Positions 1 through 45,480 of a stretch of 64,000 nt of DNA are shown here, piece after piece; the stretch's first letter is position 1, and each line of letters starts with the position of its first letter. Source of the DNA: Terriglobia bacterium (GTDB lineage Bacteria; Acidobacteriota; Terriglobia; JAIQFV01); the NCBI GenBank assembly GCA_020073085.1, contig JAIQFV010000002.1, positions 376,875 through 440,874 on the forward strand, written 5' to 3'. The position numbers and the translations under genes were made by a program. The notes beneath the pieces were generated by a model, which worked only from the letters and a program-made list of their open reading frames with translations, was not told where the DNA came from and did not search any database.

Positions 1-1
1 T

Positions 2-316
2 GGCGGTGCGCTTCTTGTCATTGCGTTGATTCTCCAAAGCCTGCTGCCTGGTCGTGAGAAAGTGGTCCAAATCACAGTATGGACTTTGGCCGTGCTGACA
101 ACGGCTATTTTGGGCAATTACGAGCATTTTCGAGAGAAATGGTTCTGGAAGGGACTTCTGCTTGGATCATTGGTGCACATCCTTGTTGTCTACAGCTATA
201 GATCTTCGCTGCCATTCTCAAGTTTGGGAATTGCAGGCTTGATGGGTTTTCTTGAGGCATTGGTCTGGCAGGTCATATTCCGAAGGCTATCGGCGACACC
301 AAGTGGCATGATGTAA
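2..316 (+). CDS. hypothetical membrane protein, 5' end probably outside the window
   Basis: Frame is open from the window edge to the stop at 316; first in-window start is TTG at 26; hydrophobic stretches (VWTLAVLTTAILG, LLLGSLVHILVV); no family recognised. Confidence 0.3.
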   Translation, partial: GGALLVIALILQSLLPGREKVVQITVWTLAVLTTAILGNYEHFREKWFWKGLLLGSLVHILVVYSYRSSLPFSSLGIAGLMGFLEALVWQVIFRRLSATPSGMM

Positions 317-450
317 ATCCAGTCTTTGGCAAAAAAGAATTTTTGAAATTTTAGGGTCACACATCTGTGCGCCAAGGAAGCTTGGCGTCAGCTAGCCGGG
401 TGAGAGTCCCGGCGGGGAAAGGCCTAGCCAGCCACCCGTAGAAAAGATGT

Positions 451-747
451 TTGGGATGTTTGGGGTCGGACCAAGGCAACTCACTGAAATCGACTGGGTG
501 GCGCACATATCGCGTTTCTTGCGATGTGTGCGGGGGAGAGTCGAATTGCACTTCACCCTCAGAAGGAGATCTCCTTCAGAAAATGCCGCACACATGCCAA
601 GAGCGCATGTGTGCGCCACCCGCCCATATTGTTCGGGATAGGGATTCCTTAAGGGCTTTTGAGGATTACATTCAGCAAAATCCAGTCCGAGCGGGATTGA
701 AACGAGGCTCGTATGTCCTGGGTCGAGGAAAAGCTCGGTTTGAATGA
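451..747 (+). pseudogene. decayed REP-associated tyrosine transposase (RAYT / IS200-like Y1 transposase) fragment
   Basis: C-terminal translation HIVRDRDSLRAFEDYIQQNPVRAGL matches the conserved C-terminal motif of RAYT/IS200 TnpA (HxIRxExD...YIxxNPVxxGL); the N-terminal HuH region is not recognisable; REP-like palindromes follow immediately. Confidence 0.45.
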
Positions 748-748
748 T

Positions 749-879
749 GTGGGGCAGACGTCCCGTCTGCCGCTGTGACTTTTGAGCAAAAAAGAGAAGA
801 CTGGATAGCGAGCTGTTCTGAATTTCCTTTATGTTTGTCCTCTTTATAAAATTGGGCAGACGGGACGTCTGCCCCACAG
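749..879. repeat. REP-like palindrome pair (GGCAGACG-N3-CGTCTGCC) in inverted orientation, about 85 bp apart
   Basis: tggggcagacgtcccgtctgcc at about 749-771 and its reverse complement ggcagacgggacgtctgcccca at about 855-878. Confidence 0.7.
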
Positions 880-907
880 CTAATCCACGTCTGATGCTGG
901 CGAGCAT

Positions 908-1486
908 TTACTGCTTCCACAGGGTGCCTACCGCAGTTCCACCCACCTGAAAATAAGGAAGTCCGGTTACCGGCTTTCCAAGCAAAGTAGCCCTCACCTG
1001 TTTGCAGTTGTCAAACAGTACCCCATAGATCACAAGCGGAAACTTTCCAAAGGGCGCGAGATCAATCACGCCGGAGACGGTAAGGGTTCCATCAGGGTTT
1101 ACTTGGTAAGTAGCCTGGAAGGAGTATTGGAATTGGGTCCCATTGTAAGTCTCAATGAGGGATCCGGTGAGGCCTCCCCTCCCGTCCGCGACCACCCTAC
1201 CGGTGGCACAGTAGGGCCCGTTCAACGCAGATAGAGGACTGCCGGCAGGGACGGGAAGATTGGTCGTTCCCGTCCATTGGGACGCAAAACTTCCATAAAA
1301 ATCTGCATTTTTGTAACCCTCTGCCAGATCCGACATGCATTGGCCTTTCCCATCCCAAGCGATTTCAGACCGGTCAATAGCACTCTTTGTGGTTTGAGCC
1401 ATCGCCAACGGTGGATTCACAAATTTAAAACCAACCCAGGCCAGGCCCAGCAAGACTAAAACAATGAGGAATGTTCTTTGACGCAT
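908..1486 (-). CDS. hypothetical secreted protein
   Basis: N-terminal signal-peptide-like segment (MRQRTFLIVLVLLGLAWVG...AMAQ); no family recognised. Confidence 0.5.
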   Translation of the reverse strand: MRQRTFLIVLVLLGLAWVGFKFVNPPLAMAQTTKSAIDRSEIAWDGKGQCMSDLAEGYKNADFYGSFASQWTGTTNLPVPAGSPLSALNGPYCATGRVVADGRGGLTGSLIETYNGTQFQYSFQATYQVNPDGTLTVSGVIDLAPFGKFPLVIYGVLFDNCKQVRATLLGKPVTGLPYFQVGGTAVGTLWKQ

Positions 1487-1889
1487 GATGTCTTCTCCTT
1501 TCCGAAATTGACGGTCGTTTCACTTTCGAGGTTCGGTTATAGTTTTGATGGAGGACAAAGTATCTATTGGAGTGGACTCCTGCAAATCAGATGAACGCTT
1601 CAACCCTCTACTCCAATTTCTAAAGAGACTTCGGATCATTTCGGCGAGATACGACAGGAAGTGTGGCTTCATCATTTCGCCTGGACCATTTCTCGACGGG
1701 GTAGGCGCCTCAAGATGAGATGGTTTCTGCATGATCTGGGTCCTTCGGTAATGAACAATCTCAATGGTCCGAGTTCGCTTCATGCTCCACCCGCTCGCAT
1801 CAACAGGCTCATAAGCGGTCTTTCAAATACTTGGACTCACACGCGGAACCGTATCAACTGGCCGGATGATTGTCTTGATGAAGGCGTGA

Positions 1890-1895
1890 TATAAT
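1890..1895 (+). promoter_or_regulatory. possible -10 box (TATAAT) for the regulator gene
   Basis: TATAAT about 35 nt upstream of the ATG at 1932; no good -35 at canonical spacing. Confidence 0.2.
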
Positions 1896-1931
1896 GCTGA
1901 TCAATCCGTGAGCCCCCTCGGGGCAGGCTTT

Positions 1932-4403
1932 ATGCTCAGTAAAATCACCAGTTATCAATTCTCCGAGTTCGTTTTAGACGTCGCAGAACGCTGTCTGAAA
2001 AAGGAAAGCCAGCAGATCTATCTGCCCCCGAAGACCTTTGCAACCCTCTTGTACTTAATTGAACGGCCTGGCCGCCTCGTCAAGAAAGAGGAACTTCTCG
2101 ACGACCTCTGGCCGGATGCCGAGGTGACCGAGAACGCGTTGACCCGATGTATCAAGGAAGTCCGCGAGGCGCTTCAGGATGATGTGCATGACCCCCGCTA
2201 CATCAAGACCGTCCCCCGGGTGGGATACAAGTTCATCGCTGAAGTGGAGCCGGTTCGAGAAGCCACTCCCGTCACGGTCGTCGAGGAGGAACTGACTGCG
2301 ATGAGGGTGAAGGTCACGGATGAAGTGAATGGGGAGTTGCCATCCCCTCCTGACACCCGGACGCTCCCTGCGGAATCGTCCATGCTCGCGCTACCTGCCG
2401 CACCCGAAGGCCGGCTGAATCGATCCCGTTGGAAGGGCGCCGTTGGCATTGCCTTGACAGTTTTCACGGTATTGGCAGGGGCCTGGTATTACACCCGCGG
2501 ACGCAAGGCCTCCTTGGGTTTTGCGGAACGCGACTGGGTCCTGATCGCGGACTTTGAGAATCTCACCGGGGAAAAGGTGTTTGACGCGGCACTGCGAACG
2601 GCGTTGGAACGTGAACTGAGCCGCTCTCGTTACGTAAACTACGTGCCTCAGGGAAGAGTCTTCGACACCCTCGCTCTGATGAAACGCAGTGCCGATACCC
2701 GGGTTAATGAATCCGTGGGCCGAGAAGTGTGCTTGCGAGACGGGAATATCCGGGCACTTCTGGTGGGTGCCATCCAGCAGATCGGTGGTATCTACGCCAT
2801 CAACTTGAAGGTGATCGATCCGAAAACAGGGGTAGCGGTGAACAGTCTGGCCGAAGAAGCGGCGAATTTACAGGGGGTTCTCCCCGCGATTCGCCGACTG
2901 GCGGTGACGCTGCGAGAGACACTGGGCGAATCACTGGCTTCCATTTCCAAATCGGATCAGCAACTGGAACGGGTGACCACGCCTTCACTGGAGGCGTTGG
3001 AGGCTTATTCGAAGGGATTGCGTTTGAACGAGCAAGTTCAGTGGCCACAGGCGCTGGTTTTTCTTGATCAGGCTGTTGAACGGGACCCCAACTTTGCCAT
3101 GGCTCACTGGGCTCGCGGCTGGACGCATCATTGGACGCGAAGGCCATTCGTGGCAGATTTCAATCGGGCCGCCGAGCTGGTGGGTGGGGTCACCGATCGG
3201 GAGAAGTACACCATTCTGGGAACGCAAGCGCTCTACTGTTTCGGCGATCTCCCTCGGGCCATTGAAATCCAGGAACGCCTTCTTCAGTTGTATCCCGACG
3301 ATTACCATGCGAACGAGACCGTCGGTCGGCTCTATCTGGCGTTGGGAGATATGTCGCGATGGAGAGAGTGCTCTAAAAAAAGCGAGCGCATCCGTCCCAA
3401 CTTTACAGGCAATCACTTTGAGAACGCCGTCGTCGCACTCTTTTCGGAGAGTGACGTCGAAAGGTATTATTCGGAATCCATGCAAGTTCTCGCCCTGAAC
3501 CCCAATTACCCCGGAGGAGGCCCGCACGTGGCGGACCCCGTTCGGGACTGGATGCGTGGTGACGTGGCTCAGGCGCAGGAGAAAATTTCCAAATTCCGTG
3601 CGGGGGAAATGGCTTCGGCCTTGGGCCCGGCCTTTCAAATAAGCGTCCGCCCCTTTCTGGCCCGCTTCTATCTCTTCATCGGAAAACCGGAGGTGGCACT
3701 CGAGCTGCTTGAAACGACCCGTGGAATGGCGCCGCTAAACGCGACCGTCGATTTTTCAAAATACTGGCAACTGGAAAGAGCACTCATCTATCGAGAGCAA
3801 GGCAATGTCCGTGAATTTGAGCGCTTGGCCGGTAGCGCCGCATCGGAAGGAGTGGGAATCTCCCGGGTGGAAGCCCTCGGATGGCTGGCCATTGCTTCGG
3901 CCCAATCAGGTCGCTCCAATCAGGCCCTTGCCTTTCAAAATGAGCTTCTGAAAGAAGACCGCCTCCCGCCCGTTGGTTTTTTTAGTCCGCCGTTGCCTCG
4001 GGAGTTGGAACGTGCCAAACGCGCCTTTAGCCTTCAGATCGAGGGAGAAGTCGCGCTGAAAGACGGAAACCTGGATCAGGCAATTTCTCGCTTCAAGGGA
4101 GTGATCGATCTGGTTCCGCCTCAAGGGGTGTTTTTCACGACCAACCTTCAACCGCAGTTGTTTTTCGTGGCAAATCAATCACTGGCCGAGGCATTCGAAA
4201 AGAGAGGCGAGTGGGGGGAGGCGGTCAAAGCCGACGAAGCGATTCTCGCACAAAAGACTCAGACTATCGGAGTTACTGGAGCAGCACAGATTTGGGTGAA
4301 GGCGTTGAACTCCGCGGGCGAGGCCCTTGAGAAGATGGGAGAGACGTCACGGGCGGCCGTCTACCACGAGCAGTATCGCCAATTGCGGCCGGGGAGCAGC
4401 TAA
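1932..4403 (+). CDS. membrane-anchored winged-helix transcriptional regulator (CadC/ToxR-like, OmpR/PhoB-type DNA-binding domain) with periplasmic TPR-like domain
   Basis: N-terminal sequence with conserved W and RVGYKF typical of trans_reg_C winged helix; single TM segment (AVGIALTVFTVLAGAWYY); long C-terminal region; alternative GTG start at 1908. Confidence 0.7.
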   Translation: MLSKITSYQFSEFVLDVAERCLKKESQQIYLPPKTFATLLYLIERPGRLVKKEELLDDLWPDAEVTENALTRCIKEVREALQDDVHDPRYIKTVPRVGYKFIAEVEPVREATPVTVVEEELTAMRVKVTDEVNGELPSPPDTRTLPAESSMLALPAAPEGRLNRSRWKGAVGIALTVFTVLAGAWYYTRGRKASLGFAERDWVLIADFENLTGEKVFDAALRTALERELSRSRYVNYVPQGRVFDTLALMKRSADTRVNESVGREVCLRDGNIRALLVGAIQQIGGIYAINLKVIDPKTGVAVNSLAEEAANLQGVLPAIRRLAVTLRETLGESLASISKSDQQLERVTTPSLEALEAYSKGLRLNEQVQWPQALVFLDQAVERDPNFAMAHWARGWTHHWTRRPFVADFNRAAELVGGVTDREKYTILGTQALYCFGDLPRAIEIQERLLQLYPDDYHANETVGRLYLALGDMSRWRECSKKSERIRPNFTGNHFENAVVALFSESDVERYYSESMQVLALNPNYPGGGPHVADPVRDWMRGDVAQAQEKISKFRAGEMASALGPAFQISVRPFLARFYLFIGKPEVALELLETTRGMAPLNATVDFSKYWQLERALIYREQGNVREFERLAGSAASEGVGISRVEALGWLAIASAQSGRSNQALAFQNELLKEDRLPPVGFFSPPLPRELERAKRAFSLQIEGEVALKDGNLDQAISRFKGVIDLVPPQGVFFTTNLQPQLFFVANQSLAEAFEKRGEWGEAVKADEAILAQKTQTIGVTGAAQIWVKALNSAGEALEKMGETSRAAVYHEQYRQLRPGSS

Positions 4404-4645
4404 GGTGTCAGGTATCAGGTGCCGGGTGTCAGAATGGAGCTATCAGCGATCAGCGCTCAGCTTTCAGCGGTCAGCTATCAGCTTGCAAGTTCAAAGCAGC
4501 CCTTGCAATGTCCAGCGGTTGGCTCCGGGACTGGAAGCCCGCTCTTCTAAAATATACCTCCCTAGTTTGTACAGGGGGCAGATGGCTGAGATCTGGTAGT
4601 GATCGCTGATAGCTGACGGCTGACCGCTGAAAGCTGACCGCTGCC
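4404..4645. repeat. bipartite intergenic element: inverted low-complexity arms (CAGCTATCAGC flavour) around a unique core
   Basis: Left arm about 4434-4482 (tatcagcgatcagcgctcagctttcagcggtcagctatcagc) pairs with right arm about 4597-4643 (gtagtgatcgctgatagctgacggctgaccgctgaaagctgaccgctg); fills the whole gap between convergent stops at 4403 and 4646. Confidence 0.75.
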
Positions 4646-5119
4646 TCACGGAATCCTACAATGTGCCAGCCCGCGCTTTTCGAGATACTGTTGATGGTAT
4701 TCTTCGGCCCGGTAAAATTTTGAGGCCGGGACGATTTGCGTGACGATGGGTCGGCGGAATCGTCCGCTTTCTTCCAGGCTCTGCTTCGAGGCAAGGGCCG
4801 CAGCCAATTGTTCCGGGGTGTGATAAAAAATCGCCGAGCGATATTGCTCGCCCACGTCCGGCCCCTGTCGATTGAGGGTCGTGGGGTCATGATTTTCCCA
4901 GAACACATTCAGTAATTCTCCATAGGAAACCTGGGCCGGATCATAGTCGATCTCAACGGTCTCCGCGTGGCCGGTGGTTCCTGAACAAACGACTTCGTAA
5001 GTAGGGTTGGGGTAGTCTCCCCCTTCATACCCAACCGCAGTTGAGACAACCCCCTTGACCTGGCGGAAAGCCGCTTCGACTCCCCAAAAACATCCGGCGG
5101 CAAAATTCGCTTTTTCCAT
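4646..5119 (-). CDS. msrA: peptide-methionine (S)-S-oxide reductase MsrA
   Basis: GCFWG active-site motif near the N-terminus; length and overall sequence typical of MsrA; GGAGG ribosome-binding site 8 nt upstream. Confidence 0.9.
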
Positions 5120-5171
5120 CTCGATCCTCCAAATGTTATTCGTGATTCAGCAAGGCTTCCGGAAAAGTGGC

Positions 5172-5672
5172 TCAGGATCCAACTTCGAGCCGGGCGTCAG
5201 GCGTCCTTGGAACCACCTGGACAACATAGCGGCCGTTAAAAGCCACGGCGACCTCTCCCGCCTGGCGTATCTCGGCGGAAAGAGCGATGCGGGCCTTCCC
5301 TTTCTTTTGCAGAGTGCTGAGCATCTTTTCCAAAGTGGCGGCGTCAGGCTTACAGCAGCACGCCTTGAAGTCCCTCGTCACGGGTTGCCGGTAGTGGATT
5401 CCACTGTCTTGGATGACAATGCCTGCCTCAATGTTGGCTTCCTTCAAGATCAGCCACACGAGGCTCCAACCCGCCAGGGTGAGAGTGGCGTTGAGACTTC
5501 CAGCGAAGGCTGTCCCCTGCTGGTTGATATTCTTTCCCAGGGGAACGCTTAGAGTGAGGCATCCGTTTTCGTACCGCTCAATGGTGAGCCCGATGACGCT
5601 GGAAATAGGTATCTCGGTCTTGAGTCTCTCGATGAGCTCCTTCAAAGGGCCTTTCATTCTGAATTGGTCCAC
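5172..5672 (-). CDS. hotdog-fold thioesterase-like protein (YiiD C-terminal / DUF4442-like)
   Basis: About 165 aa with composition and length resembling the YiiD C-terminal thioesterase family; GTG start with AAGGGGAG ribosome-binding site. Confidence 0.4.
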   Translation of the reverse strand: MDQFRMKGPLKELIERLKTEIPISSVIGLTIERYENGCLTLSVPLGKNINQQGTAFAGSLNATLTLAGWSLVWLILKEANIEAGIVIQDSGIHYRQPVTRDFKACCCKPDAATLEKMLSTLQKKGKARIALSAEIRQAGEVAVAFNGRYVVQVVPRTPDARLEVGS

Positions 5673-5799
5673 CGCTCCCCTTCATATAGCTTAGCATGCA
5701 GCCGACGATTCGTGATCGGAAGAGACTTCCGCAAAAAGTACTACAGGGGACTTTGAAGCTGTCGGCTCACTGGCGAGAAATTGCGGTCCTTCGGCCGAT

Positions 5800-6309
5800 C
5801 TACTTCTTCTCAGAATCTTTTTTCGTCCCCTCCGATGGCTCTGAGGCCATCTTCTGAATTTCAGGCATCAAGGCCATGACCCGTTTCTGGGTGACCTGCA
5901 TCGTCTTTGCAGTCAGATCCGGGGTTTTCTCGAGGAGCTTCTGTCCGATCGGTGATTTATAAAACGAGGTCAGCTCCTTCATTTCTGATTCCGTGAACAC
6001 CTCCATGTAAGCTTCGACAAAATCCGGTTTCAGAATGTCCCAGCTCATATTCTTATAAACAAAATCCATCACCTTCGATTGACGGGCTTCGACCTCAGAA
6101 GCCTGTTCTTTGGAGACGTTCGGCATCTGGAAGAACCCCCCGATCATCTTTCGCATGGATTCCATCTGCTTTGACATCATCTGTTTCGTCTGCATGGCTT
6201 CGAGAAGTTCTTCTGCCGCTGCGCGATGGGACGCTTCATCGGCATACAACACCCTGCTCAGGTGAGTGATCATGAGCAGGCAAAATACCCAGCATAATTT
6301 CCTTTTCAT
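5800..6309 (-). CDS. DUF2059-like periplasmic protein
   Basis: Signal peptide (MKRKLCWVFCLLMITHLSRVLYA) then a helical domain resembling DUF2059; GGAGG ribosome-binding site before the ATG at 6309. Confidence 0.5.
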   Translation of the reverse strand: MKRKLCWVFCLLMITHLSRVLYADEASHRAAAEELLEAMQTKQMMSKQMESMRKMIGGFFQMPNVSKEQASEVEARQSKVMDFVYKNMSWDILKPDFVEAYMEVFTESEMKELTSFYKSPIGQKLLEKTPDLTAKTMQVTQKRVMALMPEIQKMASEPSEGTKKDSEKK

Positions 6310-6343
6310 GGGCGGACCTCCAATTGAATGGTTGCAGTTCAGA

Positions 6344-6361
6344 GCAGACGGGGACGTCTGC
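6344..6361. repeat. REP-like palindrome GCAGACG-GGGA-CGTCTGC
   Basis: Perfect 7 bp inverted repeat in the roughly 60 bp gap between the amidase stop and the DUF2059 start; same GCAGACG core as the pair at 749-879. Confidence 0.6.
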
Positions 6362-6368
6362 TCCACGC

Positions 6369-8036
6369 TTACTTGGGCAGCTCCGCACTGGCACGGAATT
6401 GCGGTGGTCGCCGGTGCTTTGTGGCCTGCTCAAACGAGAAAGCCAGTTTGAGAAGTACGGGCTCGCTGTAGGGTCTTCCAAAGAAGGAAATACCGACGGG
6501 CAGGCCAAAAACATACCCAGCCGGAACCGTGATGTGGGGATATCCGGCCACCGCAGCCGGTGTCGAACTGCTCCCGAAGGAGGCATCCCCATTGACGAGG
6601 TCGGTAAAGGGGGGTGGTCCGGCAGTCGGCGTCACGATGGCATCCAGCTTATGCTTCTCCAGGGTGGCATCAATTCCTTTTTCCCGGGAAAATTCCAGAT
6701 CCTTGGCCAGCGCTTTCCGGTAATCCTCGCTATCGAGCGCCCCTTTTTTCTCCGCCATCAGGAGAATTTCCTGGCCGAAGAAGGGCATTTCCCGGGCGCT
6801 GTTGCGCTGATTAAATTCAATGATGTCCTTGATCGAGCGGACGGGCGCGTTGGGCCCAAGGCCCGCCAGGTATTTGTTGAGGTCCGCTTTGAACTCGTAC
6901 AGGAGAACCTCGAACTCGGAATCGTCAAACTGTCCGGCCGTCGCAATGTCGGCGGGGTCCACGATCACGGCTCCCTGCTGCTTCATCACATCGATGGCCG
7001 ACTCGATCAAATGAACGGTCGCCCCGTTGTAGTCGAAGAACTTCGAACGGGCGATACCGAGACGTGCCCCACGCAATCCATCCGGAACCAGAAATCTCGT
7101 ATAGTCGTTGAGGGCCTTGCCGGCGCTCTCATCCGTTGCTTCATCCAGCAGGTCGACGCCGGTCATGGCGCCCAGCAGGATGGCGGCATCGGTCACGGTG
7201 CGGGCCATGGGCCCTGCGGTGTCCTGGCTGTGGGCGATCGGAATGATGCCGGAGCGGCTGATGAGTCCGACCGTGGGTTTGATCCCGACGATGGAGCAGG
7301 CTGAGGAGGGTGAAACGACCGAGCCGTCTGTCTCTGTCCCCACGGCCACGGCGCAGAGGTTCGCGGCCACGGCCGCAGCGGAGCCTGAACTGGAGCCTGA
7401 AGGCGTGCGATCCAATGCGTAGGGATTACGGCACTGGCCTCCCCGCCCGCTCCATCCGCTGGAGGAATGCGTCGATCGGAAATTGGCCCATTCGCTCATG
7501 TTGGTCTTTCCCAGCAGGATCGCACCCGCATGCCGGAGCCGCGCCGCCACAAACGCATCCCGCGCAGGAATGGAACCCGCCAACGCAAGGGAGCCGGCGG
7601 TGGTAGTCATTTTATCTGCAGTGCCAATATTGTCTTTGAGCAGGATCGGGATGCCGTGAAGCGGCCCTCGGGGTCCTTTGGCCTTGCGTTCGGCATCCAG
7701 GGCGTCGGCCGCGGCAAAGGCTTCCGGGTTGATTTCAAGGACTTGATTGAGTACGGGCCCACGATGGTTCAAGGCATCGATCCTCGAAAGGTAGGCTTCG
7801 ACAATCTTGCGAGCCGTGTACTTTCCGGACTGCATACCATCCTGAAGACTCCGCAGGGTCGCTTCCTCCAGTTCAAAAGGAGCGAATGCTGATTTCTCTG
7901 CGGTCCTCTGAGCAAATTCCAGGTGCGGTAAGAAAGGTTCAGCGACAGCGAGGGCTCCTCCCAGCAGACCGGAATTGACAAACACCCTTCGAGTCATGTG
8001 ATGGCGAGCAGTGGCACGTTCTTCATCATGCGGCAT
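6369..8036 (-). CDS. amidase (amidase-signature family), probably Tat-exported
   Basis: GGSSGGS signature motif and conserved K/S/S catalytic context; N-terminal twin-arginine-like TRRVFVNSGLLGGALAV; AAGGAG ribosome-binding site before the ATG at 8036. Confidence 0.85.
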   Translation of the reverse strand: MPHDEERATARHHMTRRVFVNSGLLGGALAVAEPFLPHLEFAQRTAEKSAFAPFELEEATLRSLQDGMQSGKYTARKIVEAYLSRIDALNHRGPVLNQVLEINPEAFAAADALDAERKAKGPRGPLHGIPILLKDNIGTADKMTTTAGSLALAGSIPARDAFVAARLRHAGAILLGKTNMSEWANFRSTHSSSGWSGRGGQCRNPYALDRTPSGSSSGSAAAVAANLCAVAVGTETDGSVVSPSSACSIVGIKPTVGLISRSGIIPIAHSQDTAGPMARTVTDAAILLGAMTGVDLLDEATDESAGKALNDYTRFLVPDGLRGARLGIARSKFFDYNGATVHLIESAIDVMKQQGAVIVDPADIATAGQFDDSEFEVLLYEFKADLNKYLAGLGPNAPVRSIKDIIEFNQRNSAREMPFFGQEILLMAEKKGALDSEDYRKALAKDLEFSREKGIDATLEKHKLDAIVTPTAGPPPFTDLVNGDASFGSSSTPAAVAGYPHITVPAGYVFGLPVGISFFGRPYSEPVLLKLAFSFEQATKHRRPPQFRASAELPK

Positions 8037-18017: not shown

Positions 18018-18069
18018 CCACCAGACGATTCAATCATCCGAAGGGCAGTTGCTGTCAGAAGAGAACGGA

Positions 18070-18106
18070 TCGCTATTGCTGACAACTGACAACTGACAAC
18101 CGGCAA
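18070..18106. repeat. single low-complexity arm (GACAACTGACAACTGACAAC), no clear partner
   Basis: CAGTTGTCAG-type motif directly downstream of the htpX stop. Confidence 0.5.
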
Positions 18107-18973
18107 CTATTCCAACCGCCTGCCCGTCAGGCGTTCAATGCGCTTGGCGATGGGAGGGTGGGTCGAAAAGAGATTTCCGATAGCGCTCATCAGGCCCCCG
18201 CCGGTGAAGGGTTGAATGATAAACAAGTGGGCCGTCGAGGGGGAAGCCACCATCGGAATCCGCTTCGAGTAGGCATCCAGCTTTTGAAGCGCGCTCGCCA
18301 GTCCCTCAGGGTTGTGCGTCATTTCAGCGCCACTGGCATCGGCCTGGTATTCGCGAGACCGTGAAATCGCCAGTTGGATCAAGAGGGCGGCAATCGGCGC
18401 TACGATAATCATCAACAGACCGGAAAGCACGCCGCCACCCCGTTCGTTGTCGCTGCTGCGTCCTCCAAAACCCCCAAACAACTCAGCCCAGTAAGCCATG
18501 CGTGCAATCATCGTTAACGCGCCGGCAATGGTCGCTGCCACGGCGCTGATCAGGATGTCGCGGTTCTTCACATGGCTGAGTTCATGGGCCAGCACACCCT
18601 CAAGTTCCCGCTCGTCCAGGATTTTCAAAATACCCTGGGTGACGGCAACTGAGGCATGGTCGGGATTCCGTCCCGTGGCAAAGGCGTTGGGTGAATCCGT
18701 CGGAATCATATAAATCTTCGGCATCGGCAGTTGATTGTTGGCCGCGAGCCGTTCGCAGATGCGATAGACCATGGGCGCTTCTTCGCGTGAAATGGGAACG
18801 GCGCCATTCATCGCGAGGGCGATCTTGTCGGACCAGAAATAACTTGCGAAATTCATCACAACGGCGAGTCCGAGGCCCAGCATCAAGCCGTTTTGACCGC
18901 CAACGGCCTCACCTACAAACAACAGCAAGCCTGTCAGCAAGCCCAACAGTAAAACCGTTTTCAGTCCATTCAT
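18107..18973 (-). CDS. htpX: zinc metalloprotease HtpX (M48 family)
   Basis: HELSH zinc-binding motif, several TM helices, conserved C-terminal region; ATG 18973 (MNGLKT). Confidence 0.85.
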
Positions 18974-43680: not shown

Positions 43681-45480
43681 TTAGGAAATTTGGACTACCT
43701 CATCCCCCACCAATCGTTCATCCCTTACGGCATGCCCAACTGAGAAGTGATAGACCACCTGGCCACGGTCCGGGGTGAGCTGAAGGAATTCATGGACGGC
43801 GTCATCATAGAAAGCCCCGATGCCGGTCGCATTGAATCCGAGCGCTTCAGCGGCCAGGTAGAGCTGTTGTCCGATGAACCCGGCTTCATTGTGGCAGTAC
43901 CGGTAGGCGCGATTGCCGAAGGCCTTCAGGGCTATGTCGAGATCGGCCACCATCGAAAACGTAACGCACGAATTTCCGGCGAGCGACTGCTCCAGACTCA
44001 GGTAGGCAGCGGCGTGTTGTATATTAGCCTTGGCGTATTGCTCCAGGGCGTGCTGCCGCGGATGGTAAAGATAGAGGCCCGCCTCCAGATCCCGGACCCG
44101 GTGCACATAAAGATAGAGACGGATCCAGTCACGACCCCGGATTGCTTCTTCCAGGACCGTATGATCCTTTGACGGCAGATTCATTTTCCAGTCCGCACAA
44201 AACCCCGCCTGCGCAGCCGACATTAACGCGGAGAATTGTTCGAAAGTGATGTCTCCTTTTTGCGGATCGTAATTCAGAGCGGAGCGGCGTCGCCTCACCA
44301 CGGTCCCGATAATCTCGCAGGGTAGGGCGACAGCCGGGAGATTGATCCGCGGATGTTCGAACTCCTCACCCGCTCTCTCGGGCTCCGGCGTCAGTGCTTG
44401 GGAAGGGAACTCATCAACATCAAGAAGCAGGGTCGATTGATGCACGGCGTCAATCAGGGGATACGGGACGACCTGGTCCGAAAGTGCATTCGGCGTTCCC
44501 ACGATCGGCGTGAGGCAGACGTCCTTGTCTGCCTCCATTTGCGAATTTCCGGAGACGCGCTCTCCGCGATCCGGCGAATTTCTTGCCGGAGGTCTTTCTA
44601 AATCCTCCCGCCGCGGCCAAAGTGGCAGGATTAACATTGGCCATTCGTCTGTCTGATCGATCCCCAGGATTTCTGCGACGGCTCCGTCAGGAAAATTGCC
44701 GACCAGGCATCCGTTGAAACCGAGCGCTCGGGCGGCCACGAGAATGGAGGCCGTTGCGTGACCCAGATCATGATTGCAATACCGGTAAGCGCGGCTGCGG
44801 TATTTCCAGGCCTCACGCCAGAAGATGGACGTGAGGACAACAATGATCGGGCATTGGGCGATCCAGGGCTTCTTGACCAAGCCCGCAAGGGGGGCCGACA
44901 GGCTGCCTTGCCGGCGGCATTCCAGCTCATGCTCGAGCACGAAATAGTGATAAATCCCGTCTCGTAAGCCCTGGCAGCCGTTCGTGATGAGATGGGCTTC
45001 GGTGGGATGCAAGTTTCCGGACGAAGGATTGACGCGCAGGGAATAGCGGATGTCTGTCCCCCGGATCTGCTTCCACGCGCTGATCGCCATGGAATGCCAC
45101 AACAGGTTGCCCAGCAGGACGTTCCCGTGGATCGGGCTACCGCCGCTGGTTGCATTCGCCTCTGGGAAGGAACGCGGGTTTCTCAATTGGGAATGGCTCA
45201 GCAAGATCGGCAGCGTCTCGATGACAGGCAACTTCGAATCACGCGGCAACCTGATGGTTTCCGCACCTCGGTAGGAGCGAAAGGGGTTGGGCTGATTTGC
45301 CCAATCGAGGTAATGTGCATGGGTTCGAACGGATTCATAAGTGTGTTTAGTGTTCTCGTGGTAAGAGAGCGCCCGAAGAATCTCTCCGTTTAGAGATTTC
45401 ACCCGGTTTCCCGGCGTTGAAATGGTCATAGAAGGATCCGCTGCAGCGACTTTCTTCGGCGCGACAGGGCGGTCAATCAA
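43681..45480 (-). CDS. SagB/ThcOx-type dehydrogenase (tandem nitroreductase-like domains)
   Basis: Two nitroreductase-fold halves with the conserved RxxxSxG...YRYxxH region typical of SagB-type dehydrogenases; start uncertain (TTG 45480 or ATG 45429). Confidence 0.6.
   Translation of the reverse strand: MIDRPVAPKKVAAADPSMTISTPGNRVKSLNGEILRALSYHENTKHTYESVRTHAHYLDWANQPNPFRSYRGAETIRLPRDSKLPVIETLPILLSHSQLRNPRSFPEANATSGGSPIHGNVLLGNLLWHSMAISAWKQIRGTDIRYSLRVNPSSGNLHPTEAHLITNGCQGLRDGIYHYFVLEHELECRRQGSLSAPLAGLVKKPWIAQCPIIVVLTSIFWREAWKYRSRAYRYCNHDLGHATASILVAARALGFNGCLVGNFPDGAVAEILGIDQTDEWPMLILPLWPRREDLERPPARNSPDRGERVSGNSQMEADKDVCLTPIVGTPNALSDQVVPYPLIDAVHQSTLLLDVDEFPSQALTPEPERAGEEFEHPRINLPAVALPCEIIGTVVRRRRSALNYDPQKGDITFEQFSALMSAAQAGFCADWKMNLPSKDHTVLEEAIRGRDWIRLYLYVHRVRDLEAGLYLYHPRQHALEQYAKANIQHAAAYLSLEQSLAGNSCVTFSMVADLDIALKAFGNRAYRYCHNEAGFIGQQLYLAAEALGFNATGIGAFYDDAVHEFLQLTPDRGQVVYHFSVGHAVRDERLVGDEVVQIS

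Follow-up and report, generated by a model that had tools for sequence, protein, structure and literature searches.

Positions 621 to 878 of a 64,000-nt stretch of Terriglobia bacterium DNA (contig JAIQFV010000002.1; the whole stretch is hereafter the window) are very probably the 3′ end of a truncated unit, consisting of a REP-associated Y1/HUH tyrosine transposase (RAYT) gene and its repetitive extragenic palindromic (REP) sequences, whose enzyme was inactivated by replacement of the 5′ part of its gene. Related soil Acidobacteria keep the gene intact in the corresponding chromosomal position, which makes the locus an ordinary and clear case of a dying domesticated REP–RAYT system. What remains of the gene is its last 40 codons, from a His codon at 625 to a Glu codon at 742 to 744 and the TGA stop codon at 745 to 747 (HIVRD...YIQQNPVRAGL...ARFE), followed by two REP palindromes in inverted orientation. 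The remnant keeps the helix motif of the catalytic Tyr (D-Y-I-Q-Q-N-P), and everything N-terminal to it, including the HuH motif, is gone.

The fragment was identified through related genomes. One genome per species was scanned for the 19-base pattern TGGGGCAGACG-N3-CGTCTGCC, which gave 97 stretches, two of them syntenic with the window. These belong to the Terriglobia metagenome-assembled genomes (MAGs) SRVP_39 (locus L043; ~88–91% nucleotide identity to the window) and MFD05911 (L050; ~84–96%). The RAYT-type gene of SRVP_39 (3260 to 3993) would be complete but for a 50-nt tandem duplication; after removal of one duplicate copy, it encodes 227 aa and contains RRRLPHW, the HuH sequence MPNHVHVL, and DYIQQNPVRAGL. 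Residues 188 to 227 of this repaired protein match window positions 625 to 744 by tblastn with 92.5% identity over 40 aa (E 1.75e-20), and at the nucleotide level window 621 to 771 corresponds to SRVP_39 3867 to 4017 (blastn, 90.7%). Residues 1 to 187 have no tblastn match in any frame across the window, and MPNHVHVL likewise has no counterpart in any frame. An N-terminal part that is frameshifted but present was rejected as an explanation, since none was found in other frames or elsewhere in the window.

The catalytic-Tyr helix motif of these enzymes (Y-I-x-x-N-P) lies in the window within EDYIQQNPVRAGL (661 to 699). In the alignment, the Tyr of EDYIQQNP pairs with Y115 of Escherichia coli TnpAREP and the Asn with N119, two of the catalytic residues of that enzyme (H59/H61, Y115, N119; PMC3479197); the equivalent Tyr motif of the orthologue aligns to dYIyiNPvkhG of PDB 4er8. 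An earlier note, made from the sequence alone, had taken the 98-aa open reading frame (ORF) in frame +1, which ends in ...PPAHIVRDRDSLRAFEDYIQQNPVRAGLKRGSYVLGRGKARFE* in the ORF list of the window, for the conserved C-terminal Tyr region of a RAYT. The ORF reads exactly as quoted there, and the alignments to TnpAREP and to the syntenic orthologue uphold the assignment, with the refinement that transposase-derived DNA makes up only the remnant portion of the frame. Without HuH, the window fragment no longer counts as a working member of any enzyme family.

With the 98-aa ORF as query, NCBIfam model NF047646 (REP_Tyr_transpos) gave a weak match of 18.7 bits (E 0.0013; equivalog cut-off 80 bits), in which residues 59 to 83 align to positions 112 to 136 of the 146 in the profile. 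The profile search proposed in the earlier note thus gave this weak match in NCBIfam and none in Pfam; a Pfam scan of ORFs overlapping 357 to 920 on both strands found nothing relevant, and a word-indexed homology search with the ORF gave no match. When the last 43 residues were compared exhaustively with 1.84 billion proteins by phmmer, three matches came back (E 5.5e-4 to 9.3e-4), each of them a RAYT-type C-terminus; one starts MPNHVHVL. Against plasmids, tblastn of the fragment gave weak matches (E about 1), including a Chlorohelix "transposase"; this first intact comparator matches TnpAREP (PDB 4er8, E 1.7e-6) and aligns to the window at 625 to 699 only.

Intact orthologues fix the family to which the fragment belonged. 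The repaired SRVP_39 protein, used as a query, retrieved 2,945 database relatives with E<=1e-10. Its three nearest (P0004, P0005, and P0006) are intact, 227 aa long, and 85, 84, and 78% identical to it, and some sources name them "REP element-mobilizing transposase RayT". All exceed the gathering score of Pfam PF01797 Y1_Tnp, with 32.5 to 39.6 bits versus 23 (32.5 for P0004, 39.6 for P0006). The best NCBIfam family of the intact orthologues is REP_Tyr_transpos (67.2–74.8 bits, E 1e-18 to 1e-21), and P0004 aligns to TnpAREP (PDB 4er8) over both the HuH and the Tyr helix. HuH is present in SRVP_39 and in three loci in which the same gene is intact (L107, L108, L110); in MFD05911 it reads RVH. 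Three features make the orthologue RAYT-like: the repeats that flank it, its synteny as a single copy, and the profile that matches it best.

In six or more related genomes the gene has the same place on the chromosome, beside cca, which encodes the tRNA CCA-adding enzyme (PolyA_pol, RNAbd, and HD domains). In the loci that carry P0004 and P0006 (L107, L108, L109), cca is followed by a gap of ~140 nt and then by the RAYT. The order cca–RAYT also holds in SRVP_39 and MFD05911, and the window's own genome (L099) likewise has cca upstream of the remnant. Two assemblies, L099 and L100, are 100% identical to window 1 to 7000 and extend upstream of it, where cca ends at window coordinate about -480. 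The gene appears to be single-copy and vertically inherited at a fixed locus. A general linkage of the RAYT clade to cca was rejected, as one relative lies beside purA/HIT (L115) and another beside uvrA (L116).

Intact orthologues are bracketed on both sides by the hairpin GTGGGGCAGACG-TCC-CGTCTGCC. The 3′ REP starts 4 to 6 nt past the stop codon in the intact orthologues (L107, L108, L110). The 5′ REP lies in the leader, inside the called ORF, where it is translated as SGADVPSA; the true RAYT start codon is therefore probably further downstream than the start of the called 227-aa ORF. The RRRLPHW codons (CGACGTCTGCCTCACTGG; SRVP_39 3376 to 3393, and other intact copies) themselves include the REP half-site CGTCTGCC. 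Only the 3′ REP side is retained in the window, as a doublet. L108 has the same 3′ inverted doublet with a homologous spacer, followed by the 3′ end of the 192-aa gene.

An alternative is that the remnant derives from an ordinary mobile insertion sequence (IS) of the IS200/IS605 family, with the palindromes as subterminal left-end and right-end (LE/RE) hairpins and not genome-wide REPs. Such elements belong to the same Y1/HUH superfamily (PF01797), and their ends also have hairpins. The NCBIfam IS200 model, however, scores the intact orthologues at only 17 to 25 bits (cut-off 55), against 67 to 75 for the RAYT model; the gene sits at one conserved site, not at variable sites; and the flanking hairpin occurs at many loci without a transposase, singly, as inverted doublets, and in tandem arrays. 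This origin is already disfavored, and we consider it very unlikely. The features of the truncated REP–RAYT unit and its surroundings are collected in Table 1.

Table 1 Features of the truncated REP–RAYT unit and neighboring elements in the window (strand as given; a point marks features without strand).
Feature	Position	Strand	Basis and remarks
Group II intron 5′ fragment	365–445	+	~80 nt, starts GTGCG; blastn and Rfam
Antisense 171-aa ORF	392–907	-	Spans REP doublet and RAYT remnant; called in metagenome annotations L099, L100, L103, L122
Chimeric 98-aa ORF	451–747	+	Residues 1–58 from foldback/mosaic DNA, 59–98 from RAYT remnant
126-nt foldback	496–621	.	Two hairpins, 499–533 and 584–618; abuts RAYT breakpoint
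RAYT remnant	621–747	+	tblastn, blastn, NCBIfam, alignment
REP copy 1, TGTGGGGCAGACG-TCC-CGTCTGCC	748–771	+	5′ GTGG flank, 8-bp stem, 3-nt loop
REP doublet spacer	772–854	.	83 nt, A+T-rich; alignment and doublet comparison
REP copy 2, inverted, GGCAGACG-GGA-CGTCTGCCCCACA	855–878	-	Perfect reverse complement of copy 1
Convergent 192-aa gene	908–1486	-	ORF list
Diverged REP, reverse complement GTGGAGCAGACG-TCCC-CGTCTGCTC	6342–6363	-	Between amidase and DUF2059 genes
Degenerate REP-like palindrome GAGGCAGACGTCCTTGTCTGCCTC	44512–44535	.	Upstream of nitroreductase domain of 43681–45480 ORF

The first REP (TGTGGGGCAGACGTCCCGTCTGCC) begins 1 nt past the RAYT stop codon. The inverted pair of palindromes described in the earlier note is real: the arms are 24 nt each and 100% complementary, and each arm is itself a GGCAGACG-N3-CGTCTGCC palindrome, so that the pair has the form of a REPIN, two inverted REPs that can form one long hairpin. 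This palindrome pattern occurs twice in the window versus 0.03 expected, and none of 100 shuffles reached two. As single-stranded DNA, 740 to 885 folds at -36.6 kcal/mol (z = -8.45). The spacer of the doublet is recognizably orthologous to that of L108, whereas the SRVP_39 spacer is different and MFD05911, with a single REP, has none.

A looser core, GCAGAC-N3-12-GTCTGC, is found four times in the window (754, 856, 6344, and 44515) versus 0.06 expected; the copies are extragenic, the one at 44512 only probably so. With the RAYT-adjacent REPs, those at 6342 and 44512 have in common both the core and the 5′ GTGG/GTGA flank. Because the copy at 6342, where a synteny block with SRVP_39 starts, is kept at the orthologous SRVP_39 site (6146), at least some REP copies predate the split of these lineages. 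The suggestion in the earlier note that the unit seeded the GCAGAC palindromes elsewhere in the window is plausible, given the shared core and flank and the extragenic positions.

Public genomes contain 113 copies of the strict 19-base pattern, spread over 97 stretches, against a chance expectation of about 4 over 596 Gb by our own estimate; the window's own genome was covered for ~69 kb. The core is concentrated in a few Terriglobia, Zixibacteria, and Verrucomicrobiota MAGs, and its flanks are lineage-specific: nG-TGGGG... in Terriglobia, ...GCCCACA on the 3′ side in Zixibacteria, and TAG on the 5′ side in Verrucomicrobiota. By our own count, the Terriglobia MAGs SRVP_39, OBJ2_061818_110_62, and MFD05911 have 18, 7, and 5 copies, respectively. 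The arrangements comprise single REPs, inverted doublets (L007, L077, SRVP_39, L108, and the window), direct pairs, and tandem arrays. The arrays consist of ~103-nt units with one REP each, resembling bacterial interspersed mosaic elements, downstream of an intact RAYT (L110 1587 to 1806; L111 1270 to 1697; L112 1075 to 1290). In more distant RAYTs of the clade the hairpin design is kept and the stem differs, either by compensatory changes, as in GTGGGGCAGGCG-TCC-CGCCTGCC (L116), or as in GTAGGACAACCG-TCC-CGGTTGTC (L115); such a pattern would be expected if the enzyme reads the hairpin, 5′ tag, and loop. In the sampled Zixibacteria loci no RAYT is directly flanked by a REP, and RAYT-like genes in L060 and L091 lie 0.4 to 1.1 kb from one. 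By copy number and distribution, the REP core is a real repeat family. The earlier note had joined the palindromes and the RAYT in one REP–RAYT unit, and their presence on both sides of intact orthologues together with their amplification in related genomes supports them as its cognate REPs. Its call for an intact RAYT and REP amplification was answered by public genomes, which hold both; no intact RAYT was found in the window.

The palindromes might alternatively be mere intrinsic terminators or operators of the neighboring genes, with the transposase next to them by accident. On the minus strand, the REP at 874 to 854 is followed by AATTTTATAA, which is terminator-like and T-rich, 29 nt downstream of the 192-aa gene, and REPs are known to serve also as terminators and mRNA stabilizers. 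Yet an identical sequence of 22 to 24 nt brackets the RAYT on both sides in every intact orthologue, and its 113 copies in public genomes have flanks particular to each lineage, which makes an incidental adjacency highly improbable. A terminator role and REP identity are compatible, and the REP doublet, placed between two convergent ORFs, may terminate the 192-aa gene while being the 3′ flank of the RAYT unit.

Homology to the orthologues begins at 621 in blastn and alignment, which places the breakpoint at ~620/621. The 5′ REP and codons 1 to 187 have been replaced, and the window otherwise has the arrangement of L108. Between cca and 621 lies ~1.1 kb of mosaic DNA with no counterpart at the same locus in relatives. 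The HuH motif, which the earlier note had reported as lost or internally deleted, is indeed absent, through wholesale replacement of the 5′ part of the gene by this unrelated DNA rather than by decay or internal deletion. Several independent assemblies (L099, L100, L103, L122) cross the 620/621 junction at 100% identity, and a chimeric-assembly junction is therefore unlikely.

Several components of the mosaic could be recognized. Between cca and the window start is a 296-nt element with 30-nt inverted ends that resembles a miniature inverted-repeat transposable element (MITE; -370 to -75, L099 7562 to 7857). In SRVP_39, the MITE-like element is on the other side of the RAYT and in the opposite orientation (4549 to 4848). 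It contains a T-arm-like string, although ARAGORN found no tRNA in L099. A small membrane ORF of 115 aa follows at -34 to 316; a MAG protein listed at NCBI under "Acidobacteriia bacterium" matches it with 100% identity, and its homologues sit elsewhere in the genomes of relatives. One of these loci, L118, has two tandem paralogues (1154 to 1504 and 3091 to 3444). The first is preceded by a 351-aa gene; the 1.6-kb gap before the second contains an Rhs-core-like end (...NNPLEFVDPFGLN*), ~0.5 kb upstream of this second paralogue. The arrangement could be an orphan toxin/immunity cassette. The 20-nt motif ATGTTTGGGGTCGGACCAAG at window 456 to 475 comes after the stop codons in L118.

Next comes a probable 5′ piece of a group II intron, with a counterpart on Catenovulum plasmid NZ_CP109966: the two share 80% identity (E 1e-6), and their alignment starts exactly at GTGCG, the canonical intron start. 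The Catenovulum site scores 48.1 bits (E 8.7e-12) against Rfam group-II-D1D4-6 (RF02005; gathering score 49), and the window piece itself 18.4 bits (E 0.0032). It cuts a 35-nt repeat at 366 after 13 bases (GGGGTCACACATCT|CAAAGTTGTGTC...), and the whole repeat is present in L052 and L118. No domain V/VI and no ORF for an intron-encoded protein or reverse transcriptase was found for 365 to 445, which is an intron fragment and not an intron.

The foldback that abuts the breakpoint consists of GGCGCACA(C/T)AT in four copies of alternating orientation. The hairpin at 587 to 615 has a perfect 11-bp stem with a 7-nt loop, that at 499 to 533 a 12-bp stem with one T.G; pairing of arm 2 with 3 and of arm 1 with 4 is possible as well. 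The earlier note had counted three further hairpins of the CGCACA(C/T)AT type within the fragment. These two are real; the extra copy at 358 to 374 is a half-site without a hairpin, outside 451 to 879, and none is part of the REP–RAYT unit. Nothing in the RAYT locus of relatives is homologous to the foldback. The only other trace of its unit, and the one partial copy in 0.73 Mb of related loci, is the half-copy GGGTGGCGCATACACGCGCTCTTGGC in SRVP_39 (L052, 991 to 1016), 6 nt upstream of a REP and a 70-nt RAYT leader fragment. A 26-base pattern had zero matches in a scan of JGI metagenomes. A single viral match was an unrelated AT-rich palindrome, and Rfam tests showed the CGCACAYAT hairpins to be neither domain V/VI of a group II intron nor a member of another Rfam family. 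As judged from these comparisons, the hairpins belong to the replacing DNA and are not RAYT- or REP-derived. Several short-read contigs stop at window 592 to 595, inside the hairpin, and the position of the foldback next to the breakpoint suggests that hairpin DNA may have promoted the rearrangement.

Elsewhere in the window, inverted runs of 7-nt units (xTCAGCx, CTGACAA) at 4440 to 4490 and 4600 to 4645 flank ~110 nt, and runs also occur at 18060 to 18110. Located at the boundary where SRVP_39 synteny resumes, they could be another small repeat element.

A third alternative is that the chimeric ORF or the antisense ORF is a functional new gene that recruited the RAYT C-terminus. Both frames are open, gene finders called the antisense one in several metagenome assemblies, and relative to SRVP_39 the 40 codons show 8.5 synonymous and 3.5 nonsynonymous differences, a low nonsynonymous to synonymous ratio (pN/pS) of 0.13 in a tiny sample. 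Neither ORF, however, has a family match (Pfam found none for the antisense ORF) or a homologue beyond the 40 residues; the N-terminal 58 residues of the chimeric ORF are Cys-rich junk read through hairpin repeats, and the antisense ORF passes through both REPs. Recent truncation explains the low pN/pS equally well. A new gene here is extremely unlikely: the chimeric ORF is not a functional gene, and the antisense ORF is probably spurious, an annotation artifact. The low ratio implies that most of the divergence arose under constraint, so the truncation of the RAYT is probably recent. The earlier note had called the locus a decayed, fossil REP–RAYT unit; the identity of the unit stands, and "recently truncated" fits better than "decayed".

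Two sister lineages have, to judge from the lesions in their sequences, lost the same gene independently of the window. In MFD05911 a TGG codon within RLPHW has become TGA (4431 to 4433) and the HuH has changed from HVH to RVH (~4122); in SRVP_39 the 50-nt tandem duplication occupies 3660 to 3759.

Several observations weigh against identification of the locus as a truncated REP–RAYT unit. The fragment alone has no Pfam match even at E<=10, PF01797 Y1_Tnp included; it is not significant against PDB, where the ORF gave chance Cys-rich matches to complement receptor 2. The intact orthologues fall under the 80-bit NF047646 cut-off and carry a ~100-aa N-terminal RRLPHW extension that is absent in TnpAREP. 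For these two reasons they are strictly RAYT-like, in the TIRYT class of Di Nocera et al. The tetranucleotide 5′ of the hairpin is GTGG (nGTGG in the Terriglobia copies), not the GTAG of the REP GTAG superfamily. Doublet spacers, which a REPIN replicating as a unit would share, differ between loci: in a small sample, neither sequence nor length relates those of L007, L077, SRVP_39, and the window to one another, and only the orthologous L108 spacer resembles that of the window. The 50-nt duplication in SRVP_39 is possibly an assembly artifact. Finally, the own-genome sequence at hand amounts to ~69 kb, and a second intact RAYT could sit elsewhere in the genome.

The observations can be assembled into a scenario for the truncated unit, in which the homology, synteny, flanking REPs, spread of the family in relatives, and breakpoint are shown, and the catalytic mechanism, the terminator role, the sequence of rearrangement steps, and the fate of the REPs are inferred. 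The ancestor would have been a single-copy, vertically inherited RAYT-type Y1/HUH gene directly downstream of cca, bracketed by cognate hairpins with a 5′ GTGG, an 8-bp GGCAGACG/CGTCTGCC stem, and the loop TCC. By analogy with TnpAREP, the intact enzyme would bind the REP hairpin and its 5′ tetranucleotide on single-stranded DNA, cut with the Tyr of the Y-I-x-x-N-P helix and a metal ion held by HuH, and spread REPs and REP doublets in trans, activities described for known systems (PMC3479197, PMC3116915, PMC5581495). A rearrangement at ~620/621 then exchanged the 5′ REP and codons 1 to 187 for the membrane ORF, the intron stub, and the 126-nt foldback, and with the 5′ part including HuH replaced the enzyme is dead. 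It left 40 barely diverged codons and the 3′ inverted doublet, now a passive hairpin. Unless the genome holds another RAYT, the REP family would no longer be copied and should decay; loss of the RAYT followed by slow REPIN decay is known from Neisseria and E. coli (bioRxiv 10.1101/2021.07.10.451892).

Three loci connect RAYT-like sequences or insertions with cca itself. In a Verrucomicrobia MAG (L084, 1359 to 3416, minus strand), a REP-RAYT-REP-REP unit lies in frame inside cca, between HPEGDVFEHT and LLHDIGKP of the HD domain, giving a 685-aa ORF with the order PolyA_pol, RNAbd, Y1_Tnp, HD, tRNA_NucTran2_2. In a JGI metagenome contig (L117, 1142 to 2417), a RAYT with a different REP occupies the same cca loop; there the RAYT ends in a stop codon, and cca is split into two ORFs. 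In SRVP_39 (L043, 1398 to 2984), ~85 aa of low complexity are inserted into cca at this HD-domain loop. It is conceivable, though we think it improbable, that the GTGGGGCAGACG-TCC-CGTCTGCC hairpin and RRLPHW-type RAYTs form one ancient cross-phylum system tied to cca. If so, cca and the RAYT might be functionally coupled, for example, through coexpression or through tRNA-like or single-stranded DNA hairpin substrates. The nesting in cca could equally have arisen from chance and a tolerated insertion site.

With intact copies and three kinds of dead RAYT, one Terriglobia clade offers a ready comparison of whether REPs shrink in number and diverge after RAYT death, as predicted and so far documented mainly in Proteobacteria. 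A cognate hairpin is now available for a large and little-studied RAYT-like clade, that of the 2,945 relatives, and the annotation of the opposite-strand 171-aa "gene" can be corrected to a probable artifact.

Among known systems, IS200/IS605 TnpA (PF01797) is alike in fold family, catalytic motifs, and hairpin recognition. The present locus differs from it in having no multicopy autonomous IS, no LE/RE ends, and no tnpB, and in its poor IS200 score. The REP/REPIN–RAYT systems, such as E. coli TnpAREP/YafM (PDB 4er8) and the RAYTs of Pseudomonas fluorescens (Nunvar 2010; Bertels & Rainey 2011; Messing 2012), share a single-copy Y1/HUH gene with HuH and the Y-I-x-x-N-P helix, vertically inherited at a fixed locus and with a short palindrome on either side; the palindromes have multiplied throughout the genome, in many cases in the form of inverted doublets (PMC3479197, PMC5581495). 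The orthologues described here are called at 227 aa versus 165, with their RRLPHW-type N-terminal extension, score below the NCBIfam cut-off, and have GTGG instead of GTAG 5′ of the hairpin; their REPs number tens rather than hundreds of copies, with spacers not kept between loci, and the window itself holds only 40 codons.

The TIRYT/TIRtrons of Acidobacteria are RAYT-like transposases with inverted, partly self-complementary repeats starting GGGG, which form moderately abundant families of singles, dimers, and clusters (Di Nocera et al. 2013, PMC3733652). The present orthologue is alike in its GGGG-starting, partly self-complementary flanking repeats. The published motif is GGGGWSAS, versus GGGGCAGA here. 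The closest parallel in fate is RAYT loss with REPIN decay, as in N. gonorrhoeae, with its frameshifted RAYT, and RAYT-less E. coli. In those cases, too, a single RAYT is dead while its repeats persist, and lineages of one clade differ in having intact or dead copies; in the Terriglobia, death came by 5′ replacement in the window and by duplication and nonsense mutation in its sisters.

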